Below are positions 2,793-9,017 of a DNA stretch of 11,456 nucleotides, one piece after another. A model generated the notes under the pieces. That model was given only the letters and a program-made list of their open reading frames with translations. It searched no databases and was not told where the DNA came from. Origin of the DNA: a virus (lineage: Duplodnaviria; Heunggongvirae; Uroviricota; Caudoviricetes). Each line of letters starts with the position of its first letter. Position 1 is the stretch's first letter. The translations under genes were made by a program, and so were the position numbers. Location: positions 1-11,456 of the IMG/VR virus record IMGVR_UViG_2671180770_000008. One strand, given 5' to 3'.

Positions 2793-4730
2793 TTACGGGT
2801 TATTCACTTCCACTGTTATACTTTCAATCAGCACCGGATATGTCGCACCGCTAGTGATATCGGTCACGCGCAATTTGTCTGCCGTAAACGTGCCGACCGG
2901 TGACTGTGACAGCATGAACGGCGTCCCGTCCTTACCATCAATGACCGGCGTCACCTCAATACTGTTGTTACCGGCAAAACGGAAGCCCAGCGTATGCCAT
3001 TCGTTATCAAATGCGCCGAATGACCCCAGCTTCGTGTTCTGACCAGCATTTCCCTTGTGGTACATCACATTAAGGTCTGTGGCATCGCTCTGTACGTAAA
3101 ACGACGCCAGCAGGTTATGACCGGCATTACCTTCCAGTGTGACGCCCTGAGGCAGTGAAGAAACCGGCCAGTACAGCGCCAGTGCGTACTGATTAGCTGT
3201 CAGTGTGCCATCAACTTTAAAACGACAACTGATAAGCCCGCCCTTCTCCAGCAGGTCTGCGCCATTACCGGCATCATGCTGCATAAACCACGAGGAACTT
3301 CCTGTCTGTTTGGTCCACCTCAGCGCCTTACCTCCTGCAGCACCTGCATCATCAACTACCAATGCACGCCCTCCTTCAGCTCCCCATCCCTGCGGATTCA
3401 GTAAACCACCTGACTCTGTTGCACGGTAATAAAGCAGCGTTGTCACTGATTTCCCGTCCGTTGACGGTGTTGATGGTGTGTCCGGTGACGGCTTCTCATC
3501 CGGCGGCATCACAACCTGTTCCCCACCCACCAGTTCAGCCGTCCGTCCTGCATGGAGAAGAATCGCTGAGGCAAGACGGTCAGAAATAATCCCCCTGCGT
3601 GCCCATGAGCTGAAATGGCTCGCACGGTCTGCTGACGTCCAGTTTGCCGACGTCCGGGAGGCCGCACCGTAATATCCTGATGCCGGAATATCCGGGTCTT
3701 CTTCCGGTTTGTTCGTCGGGACATTTGCTCCGTTCTCATCGGTCATGAACGGCACAAAGTGAATATTCTTTTCCGTTTTGTTTTTGTAACTGCCGTACAC
3801 CGTCTGGTAAGTGGATTCGCTCTTCTGCTTCCAGAAATAAGTTGTGTCTCCACATATCCAGGGAACACCGTCAGCAGAACCACCAGCGCACTGTCCCACC
3901 ATATCTGCAAGGTCCGTACGATATTGTTCCACTACTTCTGTAAAACGGGCTGTGTGATTTGCTGGCGTTCCGTCAAAGTCAAATTCCCCCTGCATCCACA
4001 CCACGGCAAGCAGCACATTTTTCGGGTTCTTTGCCAGCGCGGCTTTTGTACGACCGATGAGATCCTTATACAGCGGCCTGCCCACACCCCAGCGGGTATA
4101 ACTCTCTGAGGCACCGGTCACGTCACTGTATGTTCCATCTGCCCCGGTGGTGAAAGCTGAACCACCACGGCAGCACGGAACCAGAAGAATACCCGCATTC
4201 GCCGGTATAAACGGCAGCAGCTTTTTGGCAATATGCAGCCCGTGCCCCACGGTTCCGTACTGACCTTTCGACAGGTCAGCTTTCGGATGGTTAAGACGGC
4301 TCATGTCCTGTACATCATGCAGACAGTGGTCTGCCGGAATAATGTCGTTATATTTACAGGGAGCGCCATCCGGCGTCACTGTGCTGCGACGAGCCAGTTG
4401 CTTTATACGCGGGTCAGGACGGTCATATGTCTGCGGCAGAGGAAGCCCCTCACCGTAAGCCATGCCGTTCGACTGCCCGGCCAGTGGAATAACGTAGTAA
4501 TAATCTGGCTCCGTGGTGACCACTCCCGGATAGCCACCATCCCCCGTGCCGGGCACAACCACTGGCGTGGTCACATCCCCCTCCGCGGCAATCGCCTGCA
4601 TCAGGGTATAAGGGGTTATGGCCACAGGACTACCAAACGGCTGCCAGCCCTCTTTCAGTTTGTGTGTCAGCTTTTCCGCAAGATCTGACGGCGACGCCGC
4701 CCTGACAACATCATAATGTTTAATCGACAT
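2793..4730 (-). CDS. nanS: NanS-p-type prophage sialate O-acetylesterase, 645 aa
   Basis: Strong RBS GGGAGA; N-terminal MSIKHYDVVRAASPSDLAEKL... segment, esterase-type motif YYVIPLAGQSNGMAYG, size and position (between Q and S) as in the NanS-p proteins of E. coli O157 prophages. Confidence 0.88.
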   Translation of the reverse strand: MSIKHYDVVRAASPSDLAEKLTHKLKEGWQPFGSPVAITPYTLMQAIAAEGDVTTPVVVPGTGDGGYPGVVTTEPDYYYVIPLAGQSNGMAYGEGLPLPQTYDRPDPRIKQLARRSTVTPDGAPCKYNDIIPADHCLHDVQDMSRLNHPKADLSKGQYGTVGHGLHIAKKLLPFIPANAGILLVPCCRGGSAFTTGADGTYSDVTGASESYTRWGVGRPLYKDLIGRTKAALAKNPKNVLLAVVWMQGEFDFDGTPANHTARFTEVVEQYRTDLADMVGQCAGGSADGVPWICGDTTYFWKQKSESTYQTVYGSYKNKTEKNIHFVPFMTDENGANVPTNKPEEDPDIPASGYYGAASRTSANWTSADRASHFSSWARRGIISDRLASAILLHAGRTAELVGGEQVVMPPDEKPSPDTPSTPSTDGKSVTTLLYYRATESGGLLNPQGWGAEGGRALVVDDAGAAGGKALRWTKQTGSSSWFMQHDAGNGADLLEKGGLISCRFKVDGTLTANQYALALYWPVSSLPQGVTLEGNAGHNLLASFYVQSDATDLNVMYHKGNAGQNTKLGSFGAFDNEWHTLGFRFAGNNSIEVTPVIDGKDGTPFMLSQSPVGTFTADKLRVTDITSGATYPVLIESITVEVNNP

Positions 4731-4843: not shown

Positions 4844-5044
4844 GGAAATAAAGGGATAACGATGATAGTTTGAGAAAAACAGAAATAACACTTTTGTGGC
4901 AAAGCATGGTGCCGGGTGCCTCCCGGTGAATTCAGTACCAGCACCTGAATCCGCGATTATCCCATATACCTGGTTGCTGATTGCCCCTCCGCACAGGGGG
5001 ATTCACCATGCAGTAGTATTTTTAATAAACAGTAAACAAAAAAA

Positions 5045-5808: not shown

Positions 5809-6630
5809 CTATCTGGTCACCTTTTTCAGTTGTTGTTCTGCCCATGCTTCTTCAATATCAAACTGCACCACCAGCGTATCGTAAAAACGTTTAACTGTTT
5901 TTTTCCATGTATCAAGAGATATGGCATCGGTTACATTACATATGGCATTAAATGCCTCCGTTGAAGGTAATCTTTCATAGCCACGACCACCACAACGCTG
6001 GCAGTCTCTGATAACAGGCATACCACGTTTTACCGACTCTTCACGATGAATGGCAACACCGCGCCCACGACAATCTTTACAGGCGGTGGAAACCTCCCCC
6101 TTCCCTCCACACTCCGGACAGGCAACTTTTACCACCTCCCTGACTTTTTTCCATTCCTCCCAGTAAGACGGATACACGCCTTTTGTGCACTTTGCCCACA
6201 CTGGCGGCTTACCATCCGGATACTGGATCTTGTTTGTAAAAACCTCGCTTTCAATAAATTTTTTTCCGTGACAACAGGGGCACTGTTTTTTGCTCGCCGC
6301 GCTACGGGCATAATCTTCAAACGCATACGAAGCCATAATACGCATCACTGCCGGTTTTATTTCTGCCGGGAGTTTTTTTAACGCCGCCACGCGATCACAC
6401 CGACTGAGTGCATATTCTGTCAGCAATTCTGTTGCCCGCTCTCTGTCATTCATACTAATGCCCATTTTCCCAAGGAACGCAGAAAACCCCATCTCAGCCC
6501 AATTCTGTGTCATGCCCTGCGCGGCCATCACATCAGTGATACTCAGCGTATCTTTCGACGTTGAGGCCGATGCATCAGTCAGGCCGGGGGATTTTGGGGA
6601 GTAGTATTTCGGTAAATCTTCCAGTTTCAT
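5809..6630 (-). CDS. Late-gene antiterminator Q (Q-like, zinc-binding), 273 aa
   Basis: Immediately upstream of the pR'-like promoter; several CxxC pairs (CPCCHGKK, CPECGGKG, CKDCRGRG, CQRCGGRG); position equivalent to quuQ / quuD. Confidence 0.8.
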   Translation of the reverse strand: MKLEDLPKYYSPKSPGLTDASASTSKDTLSITDVMAAQGMTQNWAEMGFSAFLGKMGISMNDRERATELLTEYALSRCDRVAALKKLPAEIKPAVMRIMASYAFEDYARSAASKKQCPCCHGKKFIESEVFTNKIQYPDGKPPVWAKCTKGVYPSYWEEWKKVREVVKVACPECGGKGEVSTACKDCRGRGVAIHREESVKRGMPVIRDCQRCGGRGYERLPSTEAFNAICNVTDAISLDTWKKTVKRFYDTLVVQFDIEEAWAEQQLKKVTR

Positions 6631-8415: not shown

Positions 8416-8440
8416 AAAAAACAAAACCCGCCGAAGCGGG
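8416..8440 (-). terminator. Intrinsic terminator at the 3' end of the hok mRNA
   Basis: Minus-strand RNA CCCGCUUCGGCGGG (5-bp stem, UUCG loop) followed by UUUUGUUUUUU. Confidence 0.7.
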
Positions 8441-8510
8441 TTAAGTGCGGGTGCGTTGAGGATGCCTGATTCATCAGAGGTGGCGAGGGATTTCTCCCTC
8501 GCCGGGTCTC

Positions 8511-8666
8511 TTACTCCTCAGGTTCGTAAGCTGTGAAGACAGCGACCTCCGTCTGGCCGGTTCGGATTCGTACCTCGCAGAGGTCTTTCCTCGTTACCAG
8601 TGCCGTCACTATGACGGTTAAACAGATGACGATCAGGGCGATTAACATCGCCTTTTGCTGCTTCAT
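8511..8666 (-). CDS. hokD: Hok-family type I toxin (HokD/RelF-like), 51 aa
   Basis: MKQQKAMLIALIVICLTVIVTALVTRKDLCEVRIRTGQTEVAVFTAYEPEE, which I recall as identical or near-identical to E. coli HokD; RBS AAGGAG 9 nt upstream. Confidence 0.9.
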   Translation of the reverse strand: MKQQKAMLIALIVICLTVIVTALVTRKDLCEVRIRTGQTEVAVFTAYEPEE

Positions 8667-8871
8667 AGCCTGCTTCTCCTTGCCTTTCGGCACGTAAGAG
8701 GCTAACCTACATGTGTCTAGCATGAAATTGACCTCAGATTAATGTTAGGCGTCTTGCAGGACGCGTAATGTTAACTGGGGCTTTTCTCTGTCTGCCTTTT
8801 GGTGTTCATGCCTGAGGCAGATAGCCTCAAGCACCCGCAGCAATTCTACTTAACTCTCGCTTTACAGCAAA
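8667..8871 (-). promoter_or_regulatory. hok mRNA promoter and leader: -10 TAGAAT (8848..8843), tac-like hairpin, mok-like upstream reading frame (ATG 8723) in frame with hok
   Basis: Leader UUGAGGCUAUCUGCCUCA... parallels the plasmid R1 hok 5' end; the 5' element (RC of 8825..8840) is complementary to a 3' element at 8445..8461 (fbi-type long-range pairing). Confidence 0.6.
8715..8790 (+). ncRNA. Putative Sok-like antisense RNA (approximate extent)
   Basis: Plus-strand promoter candidate TTGCCT (8680..8685), 17 bp, TAACCT (8703..8708); transcript would be antisense to the mok-like start/RBS; no clean terminator found, 3' end uncertain. Confidence 0.25.
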
Positions 8872-8882
8872 CCGTTTTTACC

Positions 8883-8904
8883 CGATATGGGAATTCCCAT
8901 ATCG
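8883..8904. repeat. 22-bp perfect palindrome CGATATGGGAATTCCCATATCG
   Basis: Direct reading; centred on GAATTC; between the 34-aa ORF stop and the hok promoter -35. Confidence 0.8.
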
Positions 8905-8912
8905 TAATGAAT

Positions 8913-9017
8913 TCAGTTCCCTAGTCGATCCATCAAAAACACAACCAGGCAGTAAACGCCCACAACAGCAACAACAGCCAGCGCACCTTCCATTGCCAGT
9001 GAGATATCATCCGACAT
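8913..9017 (-). CDS. 34-aa small hydrophobic peptide (MSDDISLAMEGALAVVAVVGVYCLVVFLMDRLGN)
   Basis: ATG 9017 preceded by AAAGGAGGG with a 4-nt spacer; single predicted TM helix; verified codon by codon. Below the ORF-track cutoff. Confidence 0.45.
   Translation of the reverse strand: MSDDISLAMEGALAVVAVVGVYCLVVFLMDRLGN

Follow-up and report, generated by a model that had tools for sequence, protein, structure and literature searches.

The toxin gene considered in the present study is identical in its coding DNA to hokD (relF) of Escherichia coli K-12, where hokD is the third gene of the relBE operon and is read from the relB promoter. The question raised by this locus is whether it represents another relBEF-type hokD or a module that carries its own signals for expression and control. 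In the window, that is, the whole stretch of 11,456 nucleotides that was analysed, the minus strand from 8417 to 8870 is interpreted with high confidence as a hok/mok/sok toxin-antitoxin module (type I, hokD/hokW subgroup) with an intact structure, which appears to form a self-contained insert within the early-right (nin) part of a lambdoid prophage. A previous sequence-only reading had described a complete hok/sok-type locus at this place, and all of the sequence features it listed were found on the minus strand, with coordinates that were off by 2-4 nt at most. The features are as follows.

8843..8870, minus strand: putative promoter of the hok mRNA, read from the sequence, with a -35 box TTGCTG (8870-8865), a 16-nt spacer and a -10 box TAGAAT (8848-8843)

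8417..8836, minus strand: predicted full-length hok mRNA of ~420 nt, with the start deduced from the Rfam model and the position of the -10 box, and the end set by the terminator

8661..8836, minus strand: 5' leader of the hok mRNA (Rfam RF01794), with the tac hairpin, the Sok-target hairpin and the ribosome-binding regions of mok and hok

8825..8836, minus strand: G-rich 5'-terminal element GGGUGCUUGAGG, the 5' partner of the fold-back, defined by the fold and by conservation

8833-8809, minus strand: 5' hairpin TGCTTGAGGC-TATCT-GCCTCAGGCA, which forms in the fold of the 3'-shortened RNA

8736..8778, minus strand: Sok-target stem-loop just upstream of the mok start, defined by the Rfam alignment, the folds and the alignment of 39 loci

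8511..8723, minus strand: mok frame of 70 codons, with GAGG at 8735-8732 and ATG at 8723, in frame with hok and ending at the shared TAA stop (8513-8511)

8511..8666, minus strand: hok toxin gene of 51 aa, with AAGGAG at 8681-8676 and ATG at 8666

8449..8461, minus strand: 3' fbi element CCUCAACGCACCC, with 12 base pairs and one bulged C against 8836-8825

8417..8442, minus strand: intrinsic terminator of the hok mRNA, with a 7-bp stem (5 G-C pairs), a 4-nt loop and a T run

8680..8708, plus strand: predicted Sok antisense promoter, with a -35 box TTGCCT (8680-8685), a 17-nt spacer and a -10 box TAACCT (8703-8708)

8715..~8791, plus strand: predicted Sok RNA of ~77 nt, with both ends placed by analogy with the annotated sokC of K-12

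First, the relation of the locus to relBE could be settled by alignment. Identity with the relE-hokD-rem region of K-12 was observed only over the stretch that runs from 8680, 14 nt ahead of the hok ATG, through the whole terminator, and the homology with K-12 hokD stops just past this terminator. The window and the hokD of the K-12 Qin prophage are identical in toxin, 3' UTR and fbi element, whereas K-12 hokD lacks all of the sequence upstream of 8680, with its promoter, 5' element, Sok target, mok start and Sok -10 box; in K-12, relE is fused upstream of hokD, and in the window a full hok leader is found at this place. Searches of the whole window using tblastn and blastn with K-12 relB, relE and the corresponding DNA recovered only the 14 nt of shared hok leader, which bears out the earlier statement that relBE is absent and identifies no relBE-derived sequence upstream of the toxin. 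The identity of the coding sequence and 3' UTR with K-12 hokD might suggest a relBEF-type gene transcribed from the relB promoter; however, with no similarity to relB or relE in the window and a complete leader beyond the break at 8680, this explanation has already been refuted and is left with practically no probability. The interpretation as an autonomous hok/mok/sok locus, which had been proposed before, is thus retained. A weak RelE match by tblastn was also obtained at 1966-2067 (E = 0.004 in a tiny database), within a 71-aa minus-strand ORF (1865-2080), and was dismissed as chance; this ORF is taken as a holin, based on its size and its position relative to the lysis genes of the nearest genome. 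In the closest genome (strain fS25a, locus L001 at 3603-4074), the same prophage contains a RelB/RelE-family pair, which is encoded on the other strand and separated from hokD, ~5 kb upstream and beyond the reach of the window.

Second, the form of the locus observed in the window is the common one. Of the 5426 complete E. coli genomes, 3953 contain the whole locus from promoter to terminator (at least 80% of its 454 nt), with a median copy number of two per genome, and 1173 contain the relE-hokD junction of K-12. The complete locus is therefore an ordinary component of approximately three-quarters of complete E. coli genomes, often present in several prophage copies. Features that the sequence-only reading had presented as unusual are accordingly normal for the subgroup, as in-frame mok genes have been annotated elsewhere and the relBE-free form is approximately three times as common as the K-12 fusion. 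Previous studies have reported that K-12 hokD has lost canonical components or has been inactivated by rearrangement (PMC12214031), and such a loss is also stated in PMC7232551, which cites Pedersen and Gerdes 1999. Taken together, the identity break at 8680, the genome counts and these reports indicate that the window represents the intact, common state and that K-12 represents a derived state. What is gained is thus a clarification, namely that the relBEF arrangement of K-12, which is often taken as the reference for hokD, is a truncated derivative. The locus itself is already known; it is a textbook type I module, which carries the RefSeq name hokD in the nearest genomes and in thousands of genomes overall, and in phage records the names mokW/hokW, with the gene labelled MokW, host killer protein or gef homolog.

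Third, the predicted mRNA contains the structural elements of the family. The leader (8836-8661) matched Rfam RF01794 over the full model length with 113.5 bits (gathering score 59; E = 8.6e-26); this model is named "sok", yet it matches the hok-sense strand. The minimum-free-energy fold of the 420-nt RNA was -166.9 kcal/mol (z = -7.0 compared with shuffled sequences) and was closed by the pairing of the 5' and 3' ends, in which the first 12 nt of the RNA pair with 8461-8449. When the 3' end was removed, the 5' element in the fold of the shortened RNA switched to the local hairpin at 8833-8809, which corresponds to the tac-like hairpin of the sequence-only reading. A switch of the 5' end to its own hairpin upon removal of the 3' end is the established model for the R1 hok mRNA. 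The terminator that had been assigned to the locus was likewise found, at 8442-8417.

The complementarity between the two ends was evaluated within this sequence and in relatives. Upon shuffling of the 3' UTR, 30 of 2000 shuffles (~1.5%) paired equally well, so that the complementarity in the single sequence exceeds chance only moderately. The relatives comprised 54 loci from GTDB genomes, obtained with a three-protein Hok alignment as the query, together with K-12 hokB and hokC, R100, a plasmid variant and Sp5; 39 distinct full-length loci entered the alignment. Per-sequence duplex folding revealed that the 5'-3' duplex is kept in every intact locus, with energies from -17 to -30 kcal/mol, and these loci span Escherichia, Kluyvera, Pseudocitrobacter, Photorhabdus, Pantoea and R1-type plasmids. 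The pairing was lost only in K-12 hokC, which lies adjacent to IS186, and in L012, a degenerate copy with a mutated 5' end. With the alignment columns fixed, 89.9% of the cells in the 39 loci were paired, compared with 35-56% when the partner was slid; this manner of counting gives too low a score for the distal half of the fbi helix, as the bulged C is missing in some lineages, and the per-sequence folding dealt with this effect. Compensatory changes were also observed: 26 sequences have U-A at pair 46/478, and the 11 sequences with C-G are from Photorhabdus, Pantoea and the R1 type. Further matched changes in the fold-back helix occur in hokB and Photorhabdus. It is this conservation with compensatory changes that makes the predicted pairing convincing, and the fbi-type pairing noticed earlier can be placed at 8836-8825 with 8461-8449 and is retained in all of the intact relatives.

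The Sok-target stem-loop is lengthened in the window by an extra hairpin of 16 nt (GCGUCCUGCAAGACGC, 8750-8765, minus strand), which is absent from the Rfam consensus, hokC, hokB, R1 and Photorhabdus. This extra hairpin is common to the hokD/hokW group and several other aligned loci, including those from Kluyvera, and would make Sok ~16-18 nt longer than sokC.

Fourth, promoters for both RNAs can be proposed. The -10 box TAGAAT, from which the sequence-only reading had deduced that the mRNA has a promoter of its own, is located at 8848-8843, and the corresponding box sits 6-8 nt before a conserved GGGYGC start in all 39 related loci of the alignment. Both promoters, that of hok and that of Sok, were missed by a generic promoter scan of the window, since its thresholds are not reached by the -35 box of either one or by the -10 box of Sok; for hok, the -35 box matches only 3 of 6 positions. 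The promoter calls are based on positional conservation across the family and, for Sok, also on identity to a tested sokW promoter. Window positions 8678-8707 match exactly a published 30-nt hokW probe (Takada et al., PMC8621323) that spans the -35 box of sokW, the spacer and 5 of the 6 bases of the -10 box. In Sp5, a promoter-less mutant in which this sokW -10 box was replaced unmasked the toxicity of HokW, and sokW supplied in trans relieved this toxicity (PMC8621323). Moreover, the Sok boxes hold their position across the family and occupy the same place as the promoters of R1 (TTGCGC, 17 nt, TATCCT) and hokC. The antisense promoter had been described before as plausible but weakly supported; the identity over the tested sokW promoter indicates that this assessment was too cautious, and the support for Sok by homology is strong, with the transcript of this copy being predicted. 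In K-12, sokC has its start 8 nt within mokC and its end at GGGGCUUUUCUCUAU, and the Sok RNA predicted by analogy folds into a single-stranded 5' tail followed by a long hairpin (z = -4.2). No match to the published sokW probe YO-592 was found in the window within 3 mismatches; the differences affect the stretch from the ribosome-binding site of mok to its first codons and are harmless for an antisense RNA that is encoded in cis.

The weak boxes raise the alternative that the locus is structurally intact yet silent, a decaying remnant like the chromosomal hok loci of K-12 that produces neither toxin nor Sok. In addition to the poor -35 boxes missed by the consensus scan, the passage quoted in bioRxiv 10.1101/2025.08.07.668861 states that the chromosomal hok loci tested by Pedersen and Gerdes showed no post-segregational killing, and degenerate relatives exist, including L012 with its mutated 5' end and L050, L054 and L061 with frameshifted coding sequences. 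However, the toxin frame, the mok start, both ribosome-binding sites, the fbi pairing and the terminator are all intact in the window, the -35 box, the spacer and 5 of 6 -10 bases of Sok are identical to those of the active sokW promoter, and the complete form has been kept in the 3953 genomes mentioned above. Furthermore, the HokD peptide was used as the toxic control in the 2026 survey (bioRxiv 10.1101/2025.08.07.668861). A silent remnant is therefore considered very unlikely. Candidate roles of such hok copies are prophage maintenance, lysis timing and phage defence.

Fifth, the relation between the mok and hok frames was compared across the family. The toxin was recognized by Pfam PF01848 (HOK_GEF) with 81.6 bits (cut-off 22; E = 3e-23) over residues 25-66 of the 70-aa frame, and PHROG 251, "MokW-like host killing", matched the 70-aa frame with E = 7.7e-33. 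The distance from the mok ATG (8723) to the hok ATG (8666) is 57 nt, and with the common stop the two starts give products of 70 aa, reading MLDTCRLASYVPKGKEKQA followed by the Hok sequence, and 51 aa; the in-frame read-through product suggested previously thus agrees with the spacing. The contrast that had been drawn with the out-of-frame mok of R1 also holds, as R100 and many plasmids with an identical sequence have a spacing of 58 nt. In-frame mok has already been annotated for K-12 mokC/hokC, which share a stop, for K-12 mokA/hokA and for orf74 (70 aa) of VT2-Sakai, and mokB is out of frame. Among the 37 intact loci with a readable mok start, which are the 39 aligned loci minus K-12 hokC and L012 (both without fold-back pairing), the spacing was 57 nt in 24, 58 nt in 10 and 56 nt in 3. 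Moreover, near-identical pairs differ in frame through single-base insertions or deletions, as observed for the window and L012, for R100 and pMTY1886, and for hokC and L026/L028. Variation in spacing is listed for loci L004, L005, L012, L020-L022, L025, L026, L028, L036, L038, L040 and L041.

These results bear on the possibility that it is the in-frame 70-aa Mok-Hok protein that functions, as one longer toxin gene product like the annotated orf74 of VT2-Sakai, with the 51-aa start being secondary. Despite the open frame with its own GAGG ribosome-binding site, the in-frame spacing in 24 of the 37 relatives and the annotation of the 70-aa form in some phage records, the spacing switches between 57, 58 and 56 nt in close relatives, so that a fused product is not conserved, and an in-frame mok selected as a fusion protein is judged unlikely. 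In addition, the stronger ribosome-binding site (AAGGAG) lies at the hok start, and both the Pfam and the PHROG profiles begin at the Met of hok. The 19 leader codons of mok overlap conserved RNA and promoter elements in the alignment, and their conservation therefore needs no explanation at the protein level. The 70-aa protein as the functional product is thus regarded as highly improbable, with the 51-aa Hok remaining the likely product, and the frame relation of mok and hok is concluded to be incidental, one of several interchangeable states with no evident special role. The frame flips between relatives support the accepted view that translation through mok is important, and not the Mok peptide. 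Mok coding sequences were left unanalysed in the 2026 survey, as they are hard to identify (bioRxiv 10.1101/2025.08.07.668861). In the hok gene, the Tyr47 codon (8527-8529, minus strand) lies in CUUACGAA. Low-level A-to-I editing has been reported to recode Tyr47 from tyrosine to cysteine in K-12 hokD (PMC12214031), and since the coding sequence in the window is identical to that of K-12 hokD, the same editing site is present.

Herein, a mechanism for this copy can be proposed by analogy with the models for R1 hok/sok and Sp5 hokW/sokW, with the window itself contributing the sequence features. A weak constitutive promoter would produce a stable mRNA of ~420 nt, whose 5' end would pair with the 3' element, resulting in a locked form that can be used neither by ribosomes nor by Sok. 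Slow trimming from the 3' end would take off the 3' element, and the 5' end would then refold as its own hairpin, which would make the ribosome-binding site of mok accessible. With mok translated across the start of hok, hok could be translated as well and the 51-aa membrane-damaging peptide produced. A short and unstable Sok, made from the opposite-strand promoter inside the mok frame, would pair with the region of the mok start, block the translation of mok and hence of hok, and mark the duplex for cleavage by RNase III. When the supply of Sok stops, as upon induction of the Sp5 prophage, Hok would be made.

The genomic context is that of a lambdoid prophage. All neighbouring genes are of the lambdoid early-right type and lie on the same strand as hok, with a DnaC-like ATPase, DUF1627, DUF977 and DUF551 upstream and DUF968, RusA and antiterminator Q downstream. 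The homology with phage records begins at ~8855-8883 and ends near the terminator, so that the module behaves as a self-contained insert. The window as a whole is absent from all complete E. coli genomes; O157-type prophages gave the best match, which covered 83% of it at 98.3% identity. The window is thus a mosaic segment of a lambdoid prophage. Because the module is co-oriented inside the early-right operon, induction of the prophage could trigger Hok directly by read-through. In this scheme, pR read-through would hit the convergent Sok promoter and silence Sok, and 5'-extended hok transcripts would escape the fold-back lock. This idea is tentative and rather unlikely, and if true it would explain the reported RecA-dependent loss of sokW and appearance of HokW in Sp5. 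In a weaker variant of it, the in-frame 70-aa Mok-Hok would act as a second active isoform.

The module was also compared with known systems. The closest counterpart is hokW/mokW/sokW of Sp5 (VT2-Sakai), which lies at the same lambdoid early-right position, encodes a 51-aa HokW that is 92% identical to the Hok of the window, has an in-frame mok of 70 aa (orf74) and shares the leader architecture, including the extra 16-nt hairpin, with a DNA identity of ~92.6%. The two differ in the last residues of the toxin (TAYEPEE versus VDYESEK) and in the 3' end, which is of the K-12 type at the terminator in the window and diverges in Sp5 after the fbi element. By experiment, Sp5 hokW/sokW is a working type I toxin-antitoxin pair, in which HokW appears after mitomycin C in a RecA-dependent manner and roughly doubles phage release (PMC8621323). 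The hokC (gef) locus of K-12 encodes a toxin that is 82% identical, has the same 57-nt in-frame spacing and shared stop in mokC/hokC, and has sokC annotated at the equivalent antisense position; however, it is chromosomal and outside prophages, IS186 adjoins it, the fbi partner is lost and the 16-nt extra hairpin is missing. The hok/mok/sok (parB) locus of R1/R100 has the same order of elements as the window (promoter, 5' element, Sok target, mok, hok and fbi), a leader that matches the same Rfam model and a Sok promoter in the same position, although its toxin is only 37% identical to that of the window. In R100, mok starts 58 nt upstream and is out of frame, whereas in the plasmid variant pMTY1886 the spacing is 57 nt and in frame, as in the window. 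The R1 locus is plasmid-borne and has a demonstrated role in post-segregational killing.

Several other observations were made around the locus. A perfect 22-nt palindrome (CGATATGGGAATTCCCATATCG, 8883-8904), with no T run on either strand, lies between the hok promoter and a 34-aa ORF, near the point where the homology with most phage hok modules starts. This hydrophobic 34-aa ORF (MSDDISLAMEGALAVVAVVGVYCLVVFLMDRLGN; 8913-9017, minus strand) is located directly upstream of the hok promoter, has a strong ribosome-binding site (AAAGGAGGG) and corresponds to the RefSeq hypothetical protein WP_001278454.1 in the nearest genome; it had no Pfam or PHROG match and might represent a further small membrane peptide. 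A search for tRNA genes in the window gave none. A match to Rfam RF02076 (STnc100 sRNA) was obtained at 4871-5037 on the minus strand with 101.6 bits (gathering score 47), between the antiterminator Q gene (5809-6630) on its upstream side and a 645-aa ORF (2793-4730) on its downstream side; in the region of this ORF, the nearest genomes annotate a SASA-family esterase. This match sits where the leader RNA of the late promoter would be expected.
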